This document shows positions 1 to 9,331 of a stretch of DNA of 18,569 nt, piece by piece (position 1 is the stretch's first letter; each line of letters begins with the position of its first letter). The notes beneath the pieces were generated by a model. It ran no database searches. It was given only the letters and a program-made list of their open reading frames with translations, and was not told the origin of the DNA. The position numbers and the translations under genes are program-made. Source of the DNA: a virus (Duplodnaviria > Heunggongvirae > Uroviricota > Caudoviricetes); the IMG/VR virus record IMGVR_UViG_2660237930_000004; one strand, given 5' to 3'.

Positions 1-351
1 CACAACATCCGAGGGCAGCATCGTCCGCTGGCCCACAGAAGTCCGGAAAGTCATGGAAGGTCGTTGTTGGGAGGAGGTACAAATTCTCTCATGCAAAAAA
101 TACGTAAAATCGATAATAGCTGGAAATAATTCAATACATGCACTCTCGAAAGTGCATCAGCCAACCGCAGAACGTTATTGCATACAACGTTTCTGCGGCA
201 TAATCCCAATGATTACTCCCTGACAGGGTTCGTAGGCCACTCAATATCAGGTGCAGTTGATGTATCAACACGGTTCAGCAGCATCCGATACTTTTTCCAG
301 GCTTCCAGCAACGGGGTTTCTTCCTCCGTTGCATATACAGCTCACCTTTTT

Positions 352-651
352 TCACCCACGATTAACCAACAGCCAGACCAGCAGACACGCCACCACCGGC
401 ACAGCAAAATCCATCAGGCTTGCCACATCCCATGCACGTGTATCAAAACCGCCCCACCACGGCATATTCATTCGCTTGCCATGCCCGAACATTTCGATCC
501 AGCGATATTCTGCCTGGGTGTGTTCACGCGCAATGAAGAACGTACAACCGGCTATCGCCCCGTAAGCCCAGTTCCCGGTAAAAAGACCAATCAGTAGCTG
601 CGCAGCCACAGCACAAAGCGCATGAAGGAAAGGTGTTATATCCATTTTCAT
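352..651 (-). CDS. Small hypothetical membrane protein (about 97-99 aa, 2-3 predicted hydrophobic helices); possible accessory (moron) gene
   Basis: ORF 352..660 (track start is TTG); in-frame ATGs at 651 and 645, the latter with AGGA about 6 nt upstream. Hydrophobic stretches FLHALCAVAAQLLIGLF and VASLMDFAVPVVACLLVWLLV. The overlapping plus-strand ORF 178..597 has no protein-like features. Start uncertain; family not recognised. Confidence 0.45.
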   Translation of the reverse strand: MKMDITPFLHALCAVAAQLLIGLFTGNWAYGAIAGCTFFIAREHTQAEYRWIEMFGHGKRMNMPWWGGFDTRAWDVASLMDFAVPVVACLLVWLLVNRG

Positions 652-660
652 CCTACCCAA

Positions 661-681
661 TAAAACGGGGCGCTCGGCCCC
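661..681 (-). terminator. Putative intrinsic terminator-like hairpin after the 346-aa gene
   Basis: Minus strand reads GGGGC-CGAGC-GCCCC followed by GTTTTA (5-bp GC stem, short T-rich tail), directly after the stop at 688..690. Confidence 0.35.
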
Positions 682-687
682 TTAATA

Positions 688-1728
688 TTATTTAGACGCA
701 AGCGCCGCCTCAATTGCAGATAATCTTTGTCTTAATTCTGCGTTTTCTTCTTCCAGTGCTGTTATTCTGTCGTCTGACTCTCTGGCTACCTGAACAAGCA
801 AGCCAGTAACACCAGAATAATCTACTGTGTAATAACGTTCACCTTCTTCACCTTCCGATCCGCTCGCACCGTCCTGATATTTCATTGCGGAACCTACAAC
901 TTCTGGGATTGCTTCCAGAGCTTCCTGTGCAATGACACCAGCATAGGGCATACCGTTTTCTTTAAGCGTGTATGTATAGCCGTTCATTTTACGGATGCGG
1001 TCGGTTGCATTATCGATCACCTGAATGTTGTCTTTCAGATCCCGGTCGGAATGCTGGTTAAATGCGGTGGCATGACATGCACCATTAACGCTTAACATAT
1101 AGGTGTTATCGGTATTTTTCTGCGCATAGAACATATAAGCGCCACCATCAACACCGACTTCATAAACAACAGGACGGCTGGAGTTGCCCCACAATTGAGC
1201 AGTAACACCAGCATAAGCGGTTCCCTGTGTGTTTAATGTCATGGTTGACCCATGATTGGCATATTTGATCTGTAATGTGTCGGTGTAATCAAATTTAATA
1301 AGCGCGTTACTTCCACGCTTGCTGTATGACATAAGGCAGTTACCCATTTTGAGGTATCCGCTGTCACCGGGAAAAATCATCGTACCGCCATAAAGGTTGG
1401 TAAAGTCCCAGCAAATGTTTGTCCCGTTATCGTTCAGGTTAAGGCGCGCCATTGCGTTACCTGGACTGTCTATCCATTTTTTGAGGTATAGTTCGCAATA
1501 CGCATCCTCAACACCTGCCGTCCTGTGAGTTGAGCGGAGTTTTCTCCCAAATATAGCTCCGCTAGTTGGCAATACCTGCTGATACCATGAAGCAGACCAG
1601 TCACCAACGATTTCATCTTTGCTGTCTACATATAATTTTGTTGCGTAGCTTCCTTGATCGTTTTTTAATTTGCTAACGTCGGATTTTAGCGTTTTGATGT
1701 CATCAGGAATTACTGTCGATGTAGCCAT
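688..1728 (-). CDS. Tail-fibre/tailspike-like protein (346 aa) with C-terminal intramolecular chaperone (peptidase S74-like) domain
   Basis: GAGGA RBS 5 nt upstream of ATG. C-terminal about 110 aa carries ...NQH-SDRDLKDNI...GYTY... then a heptad-rich coiled coil (RITALEEENAELRQRLSAIEAALASK), matching the Ser/Lys autocleavage signature of phage fibre chaperone domains. The N-terminal about 237 aa looks beta-rich. More AT-rich than the tail backbone. Confidence 0.6.
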   Translation of the reverse strand: MATSTVIPDDIKTLKSDVSKLKNDQGSYATKLYVDSKDEIVGDWSASWYQQVLPTSGAIFGRKLRSTHRTAGVEDAYCELYLKKWIDSPGNAMARLNLNDNGTNICWDFTNLYGGTMIFPGDSGYLKMGNCLMSYSKRGSNALIKFDYTDTLQIKYANHGSTMTLNTQGTAYAGVTAQLWGNSSRPVVYEVGVDGGAYMFYAQKNTDNTYMLSVNGACHATAFNQHSDRDLKDNIQVIDNATDRIRKMNGYTYTLKENGMPYAGVIAQEALEAIPEVVGSAMKYQDGASGSEGEEGERYYTVDYSGVTGLLVQVARESDDRITALEEENAELRQRLSAIEAALASK

Positions 1729-1737
1729 TTTTCTTCC

Positions 1738-2019
1738 TCACATCCAGCCACGAAGTTGATGCTCAACAGCAACCACGTATTCATCGAATAATGACGATAT
1801 TTGCGAATCATTAATGATGCGCACGTTTACAAAATATCCGTCTTCCTTAACACATACCGGTTCGCCATCTTCAGTCAGTTCTCCGGTTTCTTTGTACACG
1901 TTACCTATCACGTCGATAAGAATATCATCCTGCATCGACTCGTCATCATAATAGCCAATACTCTCCATAAAGGCCGAAAAGTCGGCCCTGTCTTCAAATT
2001 TGAGTGTTAAATCTTTCAT
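1738..2019 (-). CDS. Small acidic hypothetical protein (93 aa)
   Basis: ORF start overlaps the stf stop (TAATG, translational coupling); its TGA stop overlaps the RBS of the 346-aa gene. Strongly acidic (D/E-rich). No family recognised. Confidence 0.5.
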   Translation of the reverse strand: MKDLTLKFEDRADFSAFMESIGYYDDESMQDDILIDVIGNVYKETGELTEDGEPVCVKEDGYFVNVRIINDSQISSLFDEYVVAVEHQLRGWM

Positions 2020-4418
2020 TAGATTGACTCCCCCATTTGTGCCTCAGTTAATTCTTTATGCCAAATGCGTAAATTTTTCACATGACCGAACAGGTGTCTG
2101 TTGCCACTGGATGATTGTCCACCGATATTAATATTACCGGCAGTATAACGTTGCAATGTATGCAGAGACGGGGAGCTGCCACCTAAAATTCCATCAACAA
2201 CAACCTGCAACTGTTTATCTTCTGTAAACTTAAAGCCAGTAACAAATTTCCTTTTCTCTCTATTCCCATATGCTTTATATTCTGTTTTTGTTCCTTTGCC
2301 ATTGGTGATAATTAGCCTTTTACCACGAGTGGTAAAACCAAAATACATATAACTTTCATCAGAAACTTCAGTCGTCGCCCCTGTAATTGAGATATTAAGC
2401 AAACGCGCAGAGCCTTCTAAATTAGGCATTTCAGAATCCCAATTAACATTAACTTCCATGAGAACACTAACTGGTGGAGTTGCCCAATTGAAAGGTATAG
2501 GTATGATTACCTGGTCACTTGCTCTCGTGGCACCGACCTCTGTTGTGATGATAAAAGATGACGCGTTTAGTCCCTTTTCGAATTGAGGGGTTGTTAACAT
2601 TAATTTATCGCCAGACTTGATTGATCGTTGATGTGCTCCAAACTCAAAACGCCCATACATATTTTTTGCTTCTGGTGATTTGTAGGTAAACTCAACACGA
2701 ATCCATCCATTAGACTCTCTGAATATGTTATAAGTTGCCGCCTCACCTCCAGAATAACTCAACATATCGCCAGTCTCGCAATCAATATATGCGCCAGCGG
2801 TCAGTGTGTTACTTGAGCCATCGTCGTTAACATATGATATTCTTGGACGCAACGTGATAATACCATCCCCACTTACTTTTTTAACTCTGCAGGATAAAGT
2901 AACTGATTCATTTGCCGAAACTGAAATAACCCTGGTATATCCAGTAGAAATTAATGTCGCCCTTTCAGTTGTGGATGTTTCTTTAACGCCAAACAAACCA
3001 TAACTGAAACCATACTCATCAACTCCCGTGGTAATAGTTAAGTTAGCAGTGTCATAGTTCCACGATACTGGTGTATTCGTATAAGAAAAAGTATTCGTTC
3101 TCTGACCTTCAATGAGCAGACCATCTTTTTCAAAACGTGGTTCATTTATCGCTGATTCAGCAAAACACCCAGACTTATCTATATACGTTGCAGTTGACGC
3201 CCTGGTAAATGAAACAACCTTTTCAGACGGCAATGCAATAACATCGTCACCAACTGTGATGCTCTTATATCCAGGAGCAAACCCGGTAATCATATCCAGT
3301 GAATCGTTAAACGGTATCCACACCTCAGGTAACGGCTGTAAGACATATTTATACGGCTCCGCAGCCTGGCTTGCGTACTCTCTGGCTGCATCTTCGCTTG
3401 CTTTAGCTGCCGTCTGGCTTGCTGCCGATGCTTTCGCTGAGTTCGCAGCCGCTGTTTCGCTCGCCTTTGCGTTGGTTTCACTGGTTTTTGCTGCTTTTTG
3501 ACTGTTAGCTGATGCAGTGGCAGAAGCAGCCGCCGCACTTGCAGAACCAGCTGCAGCACTCTCGCTTTCAGCTGCTGCAGCCTGACTACTTTTCGCCGCA
3601 GTTTCACTGGCTTTGGCATTCGTTTCGCTGGTCTTCGCTGCTGTCTGGCTGGACTTTGCGTTAGTTTCACTCGTCTTCGCAGCTTTCTGGCTGTTAGCCG
3701 CAGCAGTTGCTGATCCGGCTGCTGAAGTCGCAGAACCGGCCGCCGCACTCTCGCTGTCAGCTGCTGCATCCTGACTGCTTTTCGCCGCAGTTTCACTGGC
3801 TCTGGCATTCGTTTCGCTGGTTTTCGCTGCCGTCTGGCTGGACTTCGCGTTGGTTTCGCTCGTCTTTGCGGCTGTCTCACTGTTTTTCGCGTTGGTTTCT
3901 GATTTTTTGGCTGCAGTCGCGGAGTTTGCCGATGCAGTCTGTGAGGCCGCTGCCGCCTGTGCGCTGTTAGCTGCGTTCGTTTCTGAGGTTTTCGCCGCGT
4001 TCTTCGATGATGCCGCTGCTGTTTCGGATTTCTTTGCCGCCGCTGCGCTCTGAGAGGCGGCTTCAGCGTTGCGTGCCGCTTCTTCCACCATTTCCTCAAA
4101 ACGACGCAATGCCTCCGGCATGACATCATCTTCCGTCATGGCACCGAGAAAATCATTCAGCGTCCCCGGCTTAGAATCTTCATACACGGTGATGGTCCCG
4201 GCATGTGAAGGCGGAAAACCTTCAACCAGCAGGATAACGCTGTACTGGCCATACTCAACATCCATGCTGTAACGCCCGGCTTCATCCGGATTTTCAGAGG
4301 CCACCGTGTTCACCAGTACCGTGGTGCTGTTACGCTTTGCCTTCAGTTGAATAGTGCAGTTCTGTATTGGTTTTCCCGCACCATCTTTCAGCACACCTGA
4401 GATTTTTACTGCTGCCAT
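2019..4418 (-). CDS. stf: Side tail fibre protein: lambda Stf-like N-terminus, Ala/Ser/Thr-rich repeat shaft, non-lambda C-terminal domain with LamG/ConA-like lectin signature
   Basis: N-terminus MAAVKISGVLKDGAGKPIQNCTIQLKAKRNSTT... matches lambda Stf from memory. Likely start is ATG at 4416..4418 (GGAG RBS) rather than the GTG at 4424 used by the track. C-terminus ends ...GNRHLFGHVKNLRIWHKELTEAQM, typical of LamG_3/ConA-like jelly-roll domains. Sequence below about 3300 is visibly more AT-rich. Confidence 0.8.
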   Translation of the reverse strand: MAAVKISGVLKDGAGKPIQNCTIQLKAKRNSTTVLVNTVASENPDEAGRYSMDVEYGQYSVILLVEGFPPSHAGTITVYEDSKPGTLNDFLGAMTEDDVMPEALRRFEEMVEEAARNAEAASQSAAAAKKSETAAASSKNAAKTSETNAANSAQAAAASQTASANSATAAKKSETNAKNSETAAKTSETNAKSSQTAAKTSETNARASETAAKSSQDAAADSESAAAGSATSAAGSATAAANSQKAAKTSETNAKSSQTAAKTSETNAKASETAAKSSQAAAAESESAAAGSASAAAASATASANSQKAAKTSETNAKASETAAANSAKASAASQTAAKASEDAAREYASQAAEPYKYVLQPLPEVWIPFNDSLDMITGFAPGYKSITVGDDVIALPSEKVVSFTRASTATYIDKSGCFAESAINEPRFEKDGLLIEGQRTNTFSYTNTPVSWNYDTANLTITTGVDEYGFSYGLFGVKETSTTERATLISTGYTRVISVSANESVTLSCRVKKVSGDGIITLRPRISYVNDDGSSNTLTAGAYIDCETGDMLSYSGGEAATYNIFRESNGWIRVEFTYKSPEAKNMYGRFEFGAHQRSIKSGDKLMLTTPQFEKGLNASSFIITTEVGATRASDQVIIPIPFNWATPPVSVLMEVNVNWDSEMPNLEGSARLLNISITGATTEVSDESYMYFGFTTRGKRLIITNGKGTKTEYKAYGNREKRKFVTGFKFTEDKQLQVVVDGILGGSSPSLHTLQRYTAGNINIGGQSSSGNRHLFGHVKNLRIWHKELTEAQMGESI
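3430..3970 (-). repeat. Tandem repeats of about 189 bp (63 aa) within stf, with nested KTSETNA-type 21-bp sub-repeats
   Basis: Protein segment KAAKTSETNAKSSQTAAKTSETNA[RK]ASETAAKSSQ...SESAAAGSA...NSQ occurs twice in tandem plus partial copies. At DNA level ctgactactt/ttcgccgcag at 3582..3600 recurs at 3771..3790 (offset 189). Boundaries approximate. Confidence 0.7.
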
Positions 4419-4429
4419 ATCCACTCCAC

Positions 4430-4455
4430 AAAAAAGCCCGCCTGAACCGGCGGGC
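4430..4455 (-). terminator. Intrinsic terminator downstream of lom, immediately upstream of stf start
   Basis: Minus strand reads GCCCGCC-GGTTCA-GGCGGGC followed by TTTTTT (7-bp GC stem plus U-tract), 28 nt after the lom stop. Confidence 0.6.
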
Positions 4456-4482
4456 TGTCATAACACTGTGTTACCTGGCTAA

Positions 4483-5082
4483 TCAGAACTTATAACCGAC
4501 ACCCACGATGAAACCGTCAGTGCGCCAGTCACCACTGCCGGAGCCTTCATAAGCAATATCAATGGCCACGGATTCGGTCGGGTTAAACTGCACGCCAGCT
4601 CCCCACGCCAGAGACGTGTTGCTGTGGCGACCGTCATCACTTCCGGTCAGCACATCGTGCGTTTTCCCCTTGTTGTCAGTTACGCGGAGGTAATCCCCGG
4701 AAAAAGTCGAAACACGGCTGTAAGCCATACCCGCCATCGCATACGCGCTGAACCATTCATTCACGCGCACAGACGGCCCCGCCATCACGCTGAACCAGCG
4801 GTTACGCACGGAATCTTTATGCCAGCGGGTATCGCTGTAACGGGTCAGCTGACGATTCTTGTATCCTGCATAACTGAATGACGTCACCAGCCCCAGCGTG
4901 TCCGTAAATTCATAACGGTATTTCACGTTAATGCCCTTCAGGTCATCACTGCCTGGCATATCAGTATGGGTCTGAAGATACCCGGCGCTTAGTGTGGACT
5001 GATGCTCTGCTGCGCTCGCTGGCGTACCAGCGGCAACCAGCCAGACTACTGCGGACAGAATAACAGCACATAATTTACGCAT
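4483..5082 (-). CDS. lom: Lom outer-membrane protein (Ail/Lom/OmpX family beta-barrel), 199 aa
   Basis: Signal peptide MRKLCAVILSAVVWLVAAGTPASA; body recognised as lambda Lom from memory; C-terminal aromatic residue (…GVGYKF) typical of OM beta-barrels; GAGAGG RBS. Confidence 0.9.
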   Translation of the reverse strand: MRKLCAVILSAVVWLVAAGTPASAAEHQSTLSAGYLQTHTDMPGSDDLKGINVKYRYEFTDTLGLVTSFSYAGYKNRQLTRYSDTRWHKDSVRNRWFSVMAGPSVRVNEWFSAYAMAGMAYSRVSTFSGDYLRVTDNKGKTHDVLTGSDDGRHSNTSLAWGAGVQFNPTESVAIDIAYEGSGSGDWRTDGFIVGVGYKF

Positions 5083-5104
5083 AATTACCTCTCGCTTTTC
5101 TGCA

Positions 5105-5130
5105 ATAAAAAAGGCGTCATTTCTGACGCC
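5105..5130 (-). terminator. Intrinsic terminator downstream of J (tJ-like)
   Basis: Minus strand reads GGCGTCA-GAAA-TGACGCC followed by TTTTTTATT, between the J stop (5150) and the lom start (5082). Confidence 0.65.
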
Positions 5131-6044
5131 CGTATTGGGGTTATAAAATTCAGCTGATACTGATGCCTGCAGTGGCTTTCTTCATCACAACAACCAGCAA
5201 ATCGCTGATACTTGCTGTGGGATACCAACCATTTACCCACCATGCTGATACAGAAAACTCCAGTGTCATTACACCACTGCCTGCAGGCATATCAATAACA
5301 CCCGTGTAAATCAGAGTATTATCCAGAGCCGTTCGGTTATAAATTTCAGCCCCGTTTTTCTTCACTATCAGGCGGCATGACGAATAAGTATCGCTATTCT
5401 CCCGCTCATGTCTGGCACCGCAGAAAGCCACCGCTGGAATAACAATTTGCCGGTCAAACGACTGATCGTCATAAACCCTGACGGTAATAGTCCCTGATGG
5501 CCACCGCTCCGGTGCACGGGAGTCCCGGGGGAAAGCTTTGCCCACTGTTTTAACGAGATCGCCTTCAATCTGGTTCGCGGACAGTTTTCCCAGAACCCGA
5601 CAGTTCTCGTTAATCGTGACATTATTGAGCGTCCCGGAGTTCGCATTCACGTTACCGCTGATATCGGCATTTTTCGCCGTCAGCCGCCCGTCCGGTGTCA
5701 GGGAAAATACCGGAGGATTGCCGCCACTGGTAATGGTGGGAGCCGTCAGATACTTCAGGAACACTTCGTTCATGAATATCTGGTTGCCCTGCGCCACAAA
5801 CATCGGCGTTTCATTCCCGTTTGCCGGGTCAATAAACGCGATACGGTTAGCGGCAACCAGGAACTGGCTCAGTTTGCCTTCCTCCGTATCCTCCATACTA
5901 AGGCCAAGCCCCGCGACATAATGCCTGCCGTCTTCGGTCTGCTCAATTTTGACGCCCCACATGGCATTCCATTTATCGTTGGCGTCCTTCCACTCTTTCG
6001 AAAACTCCTCCAGTTTGCTGGCGTTATCCTCCGTCAGCTCGACT

Positions 6045-6121
6045 TTTTCCAGCAGCTCCTTGCCGAGATGGGACTTTTTCGCCAGCAGCTCCTTTTCCAG
6101 CAGCTCCTTGCCGAGATGGGA
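6045..6121. repeat. 29-bp exact direct repeat with 48-bp period inside J (in-frame repeated [10 protein letters not shown] peptide)
   Basis: Positions 6045..6073 and 6093..6121 are identical; protein reads [35 protein letters not shown]. Confidence 0.7.
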
Positions 6122-6245
6122 TTCGGTTATCTGGCCTTTGAAAAAATCCAGGTAACCTTCCGCATCATCGCTCGGCTGACCAACAGCCTCCACGAATGCC
6201 GATTTGCCAACGGTGTTCACACTGCGGATATAAAAGTAATAATCA

Positions 6246-8624
<2,379 letters not shown>

Positions 8625-8681: not shown

Positions 8682-9331
8682 TCAACGACCAATCACCACA
8701 ACCTGACCACCATCTCCTTCATCTGCCGTGCTGATCTCCTGCGAAATCACCCGTGACCCCACGCGCATTTCACCGTACAGAACCGGCAGAACATTGCCCT
8801 GGGCAACCATGTTATCCAGTGAGGAGAAATAGGTGTTCTGTTTGCCGTTATCCGTTGTCTGTGTACGGGGAGTTCTGGCTTTCGGTGCCAGCATCTGCGC
8901 CACACCACCGAGCACCATACTGGCCCCCGCACCATACATTCCTGTAATTGCGGCAGCCCCCAACCAACCTGCAGGGTTCCACCATGCCACCGCAATCAGC
9001 GCCGCCCCCAGCACAGCCGAGAAAAAGCACCGCCACTTTTGGCTCCCGCCAGACGCGGCACAATGTGGATCACGGCACCATTTGCCAGCGGTTCATTAAG
9101 ACGGGCTGATAATTCAGTTTCACCTGCATCACGCCCGGCAATACGTACCTGATACCAGCCGTCGCTCAGTTTCTGACGAAACGCCGGAAGCTGTGTGGTC
9201 AGCGCCCGGACTGCTTCGGCCCCCGTTTTCACACGCAGGTCGATGCGGCGGCCAAATCGTTGTAAATCCCCGTAAAGGCAGATTCGCGCCATGCCCGGTG
9301 ACGCCAGAGGGAGTGTGTGCGTTGCTGCCAT
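8682..9331 (-). pseudogene. I: Tail tip assembly protein I, interrupted by a frameshift (true pseudogene or homopolymer sequencing error)
   Basis: ORF 8996..9331 encodes the I N-terminus (MAATHTLPLASPGMARICLYGD...) and stops at ...SGGAFSRLCWGRR*. ORF 8682..9014 in the -1 frame encodes the I C-terminus (...LGGVAQMLAPKARTPRTQTTDNGKQNTYFSSLDNMVAQGNVLPVLYGEMRVGSRV...VVIGR). Frame switch maps to about 9004..9030, containing an A5 run (plus strand 9022..9026). Confidence 0.8.

Follow-up and report, generated by a model that had tools for sequence, protein, structure and literature searches.

The O-antigen or capsule types that a phage can get past depend on its side and lateral tail fibres, the parts that are swapped in host-range engineering. 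In phage lambda, the side tail fibre Stf is composed of an N-terminal tail-attachment domain (PF08400), a repetitive shaft and a tip; its gene is located after J and lom, and the small gene tfa lies directly 3' of it. In the Klebsiella and G7C-like anchor-branch systems, a second receptor-binding protein docks on the first by a short conserved N-terminal peptide, so that binding domains are exchangeable units. Here, these and other systems are compared with a stretch of viral DNA of 18,569 nucleotides (IMG/VR record IMGVR_UViG_2660237930_000004, Caudoviricetes; "the window" denotes this whole stretch), which contains the tail operon of a lambda-like prophage and, near its distal end, a cassette (688-3300) formed by the 3' part of stf, a gene for an acidic protein of 93 amino acids (aa) and a gene for a 346-aa fibre protein. 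All coordinates are window positions and all features lie on the minus strand unless stated otherwise. The cassette follows the same logic as the anchor-branch systems, but in the latter the proteins are unrelated and mostly enzymatic tailspikes, docking is through a T4gp10-like domain and a small acidic partner is lacking.

Several fibres that resemble the one in the window have been described. Branched LtfA/LtfB lateral fibres were reported for phages DT57C and DT571/2, where the branching was genetically inferred in DT57C and both proteins end in an S74 domain (PMC4728585, PMC10713586). In the model proposed for the T5-like phage IrisVonRoten (Bas32), the proximal fibre Gp22 has a galectin-like domain protruding at its C-terminus, and the chaperone-bearing distal fibre Gp24 attaches to it according to AlphaFold-Multimer (Humolli et al., 2025; PMC11990801); that paper has no discussion of the 92-aa Gp23. 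In the T5-like phage SIA3lw, ORF42 and ORF44 were detected in virions by SDS-PAGE and mass spectrometry, on a gel that covered 19-132 kDa and could not have shown a protein of 11 kDa (PMC12752171); these two are the proximal and distal fibres and flank the 91-aa open reading frame (ORF) ORF43. It was also shown experimentally that Rcc01080 (GhsB) of the gene transfer agent (GTA) RcGTA is a single-subunit fibre which binds capsular polysaccharide (PMC7296036, PMC10218006).

Based on the comparison with these systems, we read the region, with a probability of about 0.65, as the distal half, responsible for host recognition, of a side tail fibre that is modular and has two components, and whose tip and docking distal fibre are swapped. 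Stf keeps a lambda-type anchor and an Ala/Ser/Thr-rich shaft and carries, from about residue 366 onwards, a different tip made of a junction, a GTA-like domain and a putative LamG/ConA-like domain. The 346-aa protein would be a short trimeric fibre, whose S74 domain (Ser227/Lys232) would fold the trimer and then be cleaved off and whose N-terminal ~25 residues would dock onto the proximal fibre, giving each side fibre two binding specificities. The 93-aa protein would most likely help to assemble or stabilise the LamG-type tip or the junction, in the genomic and functional place of tfa, and two constant flanks, one at the shaft-tip junction and one between the two fibres, would allow the tip and the distal fibre to be exchanged independently. 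The first-pass annotation, made from the sequence alone, had proposed a non-lambda receptor-binding cassette in place of the lambda-type Stf tip and tfa, which agrees with the present results and with a tfa scar downstream, and a virion with two distinct binding proteins, which is the most likely outcome. Its suggestion that the module was undescribed did not hold, since a proximal fibre with a galectin-like tip and a docking distal fibre had already been described by prediction for IrisVonRoten (PMC11990801). The two-component, swappable kind of fibre module is thus known and its T5-like version was modelled in 2025 (PMC11990801); new here are the homology of the tip to the GTA spike fibre together with its LamG domain, the linkage of the 93-aa gene to the tip, the constant island between the swapped modules, and the docking motif shared by the distal fibres.

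The stf gene (2019..4424; 801 aa from the GTG at 4424; PF08400, phrog_1419) codes for the side tail fibre, here the proximal fibre. It is like lambda stf in its PF08400 anchor, repetitive shaft, place after J and lom and the small gene directly 3' of it, and it differs in that the tip is replaced from ~366, only a relic of tfa is left, the small protein is unrelated to Caudo_TAP and a second fibre gene follows. Residues 5-134 (4023..4412) form the lambda-type N-terminal tail-attachment domain and match positions 2-131 of 134 of phage_tail_N (PF08400) with E = 1.6e-68. The repetitive shaft, residues ~135-365 (3330..4022), contains 83 Ala, 43 Ser and 26 Thr over 231 residues at a GC content of 0.55; it is shared with many lambdoid phages at the DNA level, and homology to other lambdoid stf genes stops near 3240-3290. 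There follows a conserved shaft-to-tip junction at residues 366-436 (3117..3329; PLPEVWIPFNDSLDMITGF...), the upstream constant flank, where the GC content drops; its columns are nearly invariant in the alignment, and the mean pairwise identity among 46 distinct alleles is 0.8-0.99.

The tip beyond this junction contains two lectin-like domains. Residues 437-635 (2520..3116) form a hypervariable, putatively glycan-binding domain that is homologous to the GTA head spike fibre and reaches 66.1 bits against NCBIfam NF048003 (GTA_spike_fiber; cut-off 36). A tip profile built from six lineages matches Rcc01080 of RcGTA (6tb9) with E = 5.7e-19, the homologous span in Stf being ~405-650. Residues ~690-796 (2037..2357) probably form a LamG/ConA-like lectin domain, as the first-pass annotation had expected at the end of Stf, with a match to Laminin_G_3 (Pfam) at E = 4.8e-6 and 27.2 bits, just under the gathering threshold of 27.6; 15 of 30 Stf homologues match Laminin_G_3 at E <= 0.01, and one homologue (P0274) has a precomputed match. 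A lambda- or T4 gp37-like C-terminal tip was not found on Stf, which matches GTA_spike_fiber and Laminin_G_3 in its place. The last 35 residues are conserved and end in HLFGHVKNLRIWHKELT, a motif kept across all lineages compared. In local BLAST, the upstream fibres of the compared loci all share the C-terminal ~435 residues of the window Stf, ending HLFGH(I/V)(R/K)N(F/L)RIWHK.LT; the protein is 65% identical to Stf of Tritos and, over 770 aa, 41% identical to IrisVonRoten Gp22. The tip is most likely a glycan-binding head, judged from its sequence relatives, with a surface polysaccharide such as O-antigen or capsule as the putative target. The RcGTA fibre is a module that binds capsular polysaccharide on a flexible stalk (PMC10218006), but it is single-subunit, sits on the capsid and not on a tail, has no LamG domain and is active when made alone in E. 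coli.

Some observations on other tips of this kind can be added. In phage 4A7 (locus L142, 3376-5792), an insertion sequence with three transposase ORFs lies in the LamG part of the stf tip, and the tip is parted in this way from the 92-aa gene in phages 4A7, D2 and 3W; phage 4A7, at one point considered a different architecture, was rejected as such and represents this insertion into the tip. Phage 37, a T5-like phage of Salmonella, gets round O-antigen phase variation by host-range mutations, which are clustered at Ltf 468-556 (PMC12541327). This Ltf serves as a lead only; if it belongs to the same family, the positions would correspond to the hypervariable GTA-like domain. The Eligo preprint on Stf engineering concerns a lambda-P2 chimera, is silent on this tip and was set aside.

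The 93-aa acidic protein (1738..2019, phrog_1361) is the partner of this LamG-type tip. Its gene was found 3' of the tip type in 78 of 80 viral loci of the window type and in ~45 of 50 loci of the phage-21 type, which encode no distal fibre and have a membrane-protein gene next. Records in the phage collection number 217 for the tip and 181 for the small gene, and their breakdown by taxon matches. A scan of one genome per species gave 10 gammaproteobacterial tips (Escherichia ruysiae, a mis-binned "Collinsella" contig, Silvania, Buttiauxella, Leclercia and Aeromonas), and behind each of the 10 lies a member of the family, 93-104 aa long and with a pI (isoelectric point) of 4.1-4.9. The Aeromonas ORFs gave a borderline E = 0.005 with an E. 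coli-centred profile; a bridging profile matched them at E ~1e-15, and they were its only matches among 258 ORFs. Outside this class, a family member lies directly downstream of the tip gene in a betaproteobacterial metagenome-assembled genome of Noviherbaspirillum (E = 8.5e-8), and none follows the tip in two alphaproteobacterial loci. Loci that encode no distal fibre, namely those of the phage 21 class, of rV5-like phages and of Aeromonas and Buttiauxella, show the family conserved to the same degree; since the linkage persists there, the 93-aa protein goes with the tip and not with the distal fibre. For the same reason, a role as assembly factor or tip partner is favoured over that of a pure adaptor for the distal fibre.

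Two of these loci call for a remark. The actinobacterial metagenome-assembled genome labelled "Collinsella sp." (L145) includes a 2.8-kb contig with an E. coli-type stf tip and a 93-aa gene, probably a binning contamination. In Buttiauxella izardii (L147, 3280-7473), a 469-aa LamG-tipped protein and its 93-aa partner lie between large ORFs, with no distal fibre following; by their N-terminal sequences, the flanking ORFs look like tail or baseplate genes of a Mu-like myovirus, not like the end of a siphovirus tail operon.

The 93-aa protein is indeed acidic, as first described, with a pI of 4.05 and 22 Asp/Glu against 7 Lys/Arg; the small proteins of the compared loci are 38-54% identical and all acidic (pI 4.05-4.25). 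The dN/dS ratio of ~0.2 over 37 alleles indicates that the gene is conserved as a protein under purifying selection. Searches of Pfam, NCBIfam and PDB sequences gave no match, and an exhaustive profile search of 1.84 billion representatives gave 82 clusters for this small, conserved and uncharacterised family. Candidate domain fusions in proteins of 395-1,677 aa, with 3-7 matched stretches, were rejected as summed weak matches to acidic repeats (PKD, TPR and low-complexity repeats). AlphaFold2 predicted a compact alpha/beta domain at a predicted local distance difference test score (pLDDT) of 81.5, followed by an invariant disordered R..W tail at the C-terminus. Fold searches gave no meaningful neighbour (best Foldseek-PDB hit E = 0.011), and BFVD returned only uncharacterised small phage proteins. 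The genomic position is chaperone-like, directly downstream of a fibre gene whose tip is co-inherited, with stop and start overlapping. The first-pass annotation had also reckoned with a common, annotated stf/tfa variant in which the 93-aa protein would be a known chaperone; of these two points only the first holds, the arrangement being common and the protein no known chaperone.

The 346-aa distal (branch) fibre with its C-terminal intramolecular chaperone (688..1728) matches phrog_4563 over its full length. Peptidase_S74 (PF13884) was detected at residues 227-278 with E = 4.8e-14 and 52.8 bits (cut-off 22), and the catalytic pair Ser227 and Lys232 lies in HSDRDLKDNI, five residues apart, the spacing of endosialidase-type S74 domains; the autoproteolytic chaperone motif of the first-pass annotation is thus borne out. 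Autocleavage at Ser227 would release residues 227-346 (691..1050), which comprise the chaperone and a C-terminal coiled coil and are predicted to be cleaved off. An S74 domain is present in all distal types compared. The protein is 68% identical to the 351-aa protein of JenP1; its residues 110-208 resemble fibres of the P2 gpH type, its C-terminal region resembles the chaperone region of phage S16 gp37 (6f45), and residues 1-208 are found at full length only in phages that also have the 93-aa gene. Like K1F endosialidase, T5 pb1 and S16 gp37, it has an S74 domain with Ser-x4-Lys and then a coiled-coil tail, but compared with them its mature part is very short (226 aa; ~115 aa in the 234-aa allele) and a docking peptide replaces the long shaft.

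This docking motif, MATSTVIPDDIKTLK..., occupies residues 1-25 (1654..1728), with an identity of 0.95 over residues 1-15, and is common to the 346-aa protein, IrisVonRoten Gp24 (where it reads MVTKTVIPTDITKLK, as against MATSTVIPDDIKTLK in the window), JenP1, KarlJaspers and both E. coli distal types; the downstream fibres of the compared loci start M(A/V)T.T.IP.DI..LK. The alternative distal gene of E. coli (234 aa) has the same first ~15 residues, a coiled coil and an S74 domain, and the 225-aa "putative chaperone" of KarlJaspers is of the same kind. Homologues of Gp24 in Gordonclarkvirinae and SU10-like phages match from residue 49 only, and Dhillonvirus fibres from residue 28 only. Because the motif is absent from homologous fibres that are attached differently, the N-terminal peptide is regarded as an attachment module that can be separated from the rest and belongs to this context only. 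Docking of the distal fibre itself is inferred from synteny, from the conservation of the motif and from the published AlphaFold-Multimer model of the T5-like homologue.

The likeness to IrisVonRoten extends over the whole cassette, from the homologous tip with the same end motif and the 92-aa acidic ORF that overlaps its stop (39% identity) to the docking motif and the S74 domain of the distal fibre. The two loci differ at both ends: the anchor is T5-type and LtfC-dependent in IrisVonRoten and lambda-type (PF08400) in the window, and the IrisVonRoten distal fibre is a 574-aa "T-shaped" dual-domain protein (Gp12-like plus T5-like domains) with no BLAST similarity to the body of the 346-aa protein. 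DT57C and DT571/2 share with the window two consecutive fibre genes, S74 domains and, as predicted for the window, the attachment of the second fibre via the first with two receptor specificities; no small intervening gene was described there, whereas the window has a 93-aa gene between the two and a proximal fibre with a lectin-like end and no S74.

The arrangement had been thought unusual for lambdoid tails, which proved not to be the case. The stretch 600-3400 of the window is 100% identical in 15 complete E. coli chromosomes; among 5,426 complete E. coli genomes, the window-type 93-aa gene was found in ~985 (~18%), in up to 5 copies per genome, and the 346-aa gene in ~431. Cultured lambdoid phages with the same layout are Tritos, 2G7b, HannyBb, PhiR46_1, PhiR47_1, PhiR63_1 and PhiR11_1, and the same three-gene order occurs in the lytic phages JenP1 (Nonagvirus), IrisVonRoten and SIA3lw (T5-like) and KarlJaspers (Drexlerviridae); rV5-like myoviruses have the tip and the small ORF. 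The cassette ranks among the commonest E. coli prophage fibre tips, and lytic phages used in therapy collections have it too. Several records labelled as Campylobacter or Listeria phages (H92, H101, H169-H171, H86, H93) reach 100% identity with fibre loci of rV5-like coliphages and ~38-40% with those of T5-like ones, and their host labels look doubtful.

Conservation along these loci is modular. In E. coli prophages, 93-aa proteins that are 94-100% identical stand beside tips only 45-54% identical to that of the window and beside either distal type, in all combinations. Position by position, a constant flank (Stf 332 to ~440) is followed by a variable part (Stf ~452-766, both lectin-like domains; identity 0.35-0.7), then by a constant island (identity 0.8-0.98) that comprises Stf 767-801, the 93-aa protein in full and the first 15 to 25 residues of the distal fibre, and finally by the variable body of the distal fibre. 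From these sequence comparisons, the locus is a cassette system in which two receptor-binding modules appear to be swapped independently around fixed junctions; the constant island may serve as a physical junction or as a recombination anchor, or do both. The boundaries between constant and variable parts (Stf 366-436; Stf 767-801 with the 93-aa protein and distal residues 1-25) give practical rules for chimeric fibres, and the 93-aa gene travelling with the tip suggests that it be co-expressed whenever such a tip is transplanted.

Several points weigh against this two-component reading. The LamG match is 0.4 bits short of the Pfam threshold, and the AlphaFold2 model of the Stf tip, built on a 30-sequence alignment, reached a pLDDT of 46, too poor for a fold search. 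Rcc01080 was resolved only at residues 2-10, its homologous part being unresolved in cryo-electron microscopy (PMC7296036), so that the homology informs on function and not on fold. Both the docking and the fold of the tip thus lean on homology and on a prediction by another group. The 93-aa protein shows no similarity in sequence or fold to known fibre chaperones (Tfa/Caudo_TAP, gp38, gp57A), and recombinant Rcc01080 is functional without any partner, so that the GTA-like domain needs none (PMC10218006). As Rcc01080 has no LamG domain, the client of the 93-aa protein is more likely the LamG part or the trimer context. The strict linkage and the constant island could also partly reflect use as a recombination anchor and not physical interaction, and the copy in the window may never have been assembled into a virion, given its frameshifted J and truncated-looking I.

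Among the alternatives, the one to be taken most seriously concerns the 93-aa protein, which might be a structural adaptor that stays in the virion on the C-terminus of the Stf tip and forms the socket for the distal N-terminus, comparable in role to T4 gp35/gp36; we consider this possible at about one chance in a few. Exactly three elements meet in the constant island, namely Stf 767-801, the 93-aa protein and distal residues 1-25, the same 93-aa protein goes with several tip alleles and with both distal bodies, each examined gene with the docking motif sits 9 nt downstream of a 93-aa gene, and the compact, confidently predicted domain has a disordered invariant R..W tail that could act as a peg. 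The word adaptor had already been used in the first-pass annotation and may prove right, but the family is also kept where no distal fibre is encoded, in the phage 21 class, rV5-like phages, Aeromonas and Buttiauxella. The protein was, moreover, not reported among the virion proteins of SIA3lw, on a gel that could not resolve 11 kDa, and the virion proteome of rV5 is uninformative as a presence test since rV5 itself is without this allele. In AnnaHegner, the distal fibre is described as attaching to the proximal one and the consecutive gene numbers Gp9 and Gp10 suggest that no gene intervenes (PMC11990801), although the locus itself was not checked. A bolder version, held just as tentatively, would make phrog_1361 an unrecognised class of junction proteins, obligatory for every LamG-tipped phage fibre, with a fold unrelated to Tfa, gp38 and gp57A, and acting as a virion-retained cap and universal socket; if true, the constant island would be a plug-and-play hub for host-range evolution in lambdoid, T5-like, Drexlerviridae, Nonagvirus and rV5-like phages.

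The remaining explanations are considered unlikely, to different degrees. The cassette of this prophage could be the non-functional leftover of a defective element, with the 346-aa ORF as the stranded end of an older fibre gene, and the frameshift in J by a 28-bp tandem duplication, the seemingly truncated I, the past rearrangement shown by the tfa relic and the annotation of the closely related stf of E. coli KC-Dl-1 as pseudogene pieces fit with this. All three cassette ORFs are intact in the window copy, however, the 93-aa gene is under purifying selection across alleles, and hundreds of genomes, as well as plaque-forming phages, have an intact 346-aa gene; a defective copy would also be uninformative on the nature of the module, and the J duplication could be an assembly error, so that we regard this as unlikely. 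Slightly less probable still is that the 346-aa protein is an independent fibre attached directly to the tail tip, giving two separate fibre sets. It is complete with its own chaperone domain and ribosome-binding site, and related fibres with their own baseplate anchor exist, e.g., ManiWeber Gp114 (PMC11990801), but it has no recognisable anchor, and its first ~25 residues occur nowhere but 3' of this tip type and the 93-aa gene. The same distal gene functions in lambdoid, T5-like and Nonagvirus tails, whose own tips differ, which argues for attachment to the shared Stf tip, and phrog_6578 and phrog_5668 have the same distal body fused to the ends of long fibres. The least probable, and in our opinion very improbable, is a moron, that is, cargo unrelated to the virion with an anti-defence or lysogenic-conversion function, as the first-pass annotation had offered for the anti-defence case. 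The GC content of 0.42 would fit, as would the location, which is where the late operon ends and true cargo adjoins (in related genomes, sitABCD), yet the three proteins belong to tail-fibre loci of temperate and strictly lytic phages, their genes overlap or are spaced by 9 nt between two terminator-like hairpins, and both fibre homologues were detected in SIA3lw virions (PMC12752171); the rejection rests on context and not on a search of the anti-phage defence library. The two-component fibre with swapped modules remains the preferred reading.

Gene order and composition around the cassette agree with the first description. On the minus strand, the head and tail genes are followed by J, present as two ORFs (6243-8621 and 5150-6220), lom (4483-5082), stf, the 93-aa gene, the 346-aa gene and a membrane-protein gene. 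The three ORFs, the low-GC block and the GC drop at ~3300 are as stated in the first-pass annotation: the GC content falls from 0.546 (3301-4424) to 0.40 (2019-3300), and is 0.42 over the cassette (688-3300) against 0.567 in the remainder of the prophage. The translational coupling was likewise confirmed, as the stf stop overlaps the start of the 93-aa gene in TAATG and 9 nt containing GAGGAAG separate the stop of the latter from the 346-aa start. For stf, the ATG at 4418 is a probable start, likelier than the GTG at 4424, since GGAG lies 8 nt upstream of it. PHROG families cover all three cassette proteins end to end, phrog_1361 being of unknown function. One terminator-like hairpin closes the stf-93-346 unit (667..681; GGGGCCGAGCGCCCC then GTTTTATT) and another lies in the gap between lom and stf (4435..4456; an 8-bp stem with 7 GC pairs, then TTTTTT). 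No known RNA family was found in 1-5200 of the window, and promoter-like sites showed no excess over the shuffled expectation. The long ORFs that overlie the stf shaft (3290-4129 in an alternative frame of the minus strand, e.g., one of 279 aa that is extremely basic, and 3112-3501 on the plus strand) were rejected as by-products of repeat composition and are not genes.

No intact tfa (Caudo_TAP) was found directly downstream of stf, and in this sense the earlier statement that tfa is absent stands; it has to be qualified by a relic of the last 36 codons at 213..326, which matches positions 95-130 of 131 of the Caudo_TAP profile (E = 2.4e-16). The relic is a RefSeq pseudogene in KC-Dl-1, and a relic likewise lies 3' of the membrane-protein gene in a locus of the phage-21 type (L144). 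It is taken as the scar of a lambda-type tip and tfa module that was once replaced. The membrane-protein gene (352..645; phrog_1443) codes for 97 aa with two transmembrane segments, without a Pfam match, and is 95% identical to gp24 of phage 21. It was found in both lambdoid locus classes and is absent from lytic phages with the cassette; the protein is probably not part of the fibre and may be a moron expressed in the lysogen.

The state of this prophage copy was assessed with the related prophage of E. coli KC-Dl-1 (L001, 872-5401 and 7420-9819), which adjoins sitABCD and a partial icd, like phage 21. In the window, a perfect 28-bp tandem duplication (6269-6296 = 6297-6324) shifts the frame of J, giving the two ORFs with Ig_J_second split across both; J of KC-Dl-1 has one copy of this stretch and is intact. 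In the gene I region (8682-9331), a 111-aa ORF (8996-9331) with the whole Lambda_tail_I domain overlaps a 110-aa ORF (8682-9014) without a Pfam match. Gene I thus looks truncated or split, and the KC-Dl-1 prophage has nothing that matches 8918-9135. The prophage probably cannot build a tail tip unless the lesions in J and I are assembly errors. The KC-Dl-1 stf is 99.7% identical to that of the window, without gaps, and is annotated as three pseudogene pieces, while in the window stf is one intact ORF.

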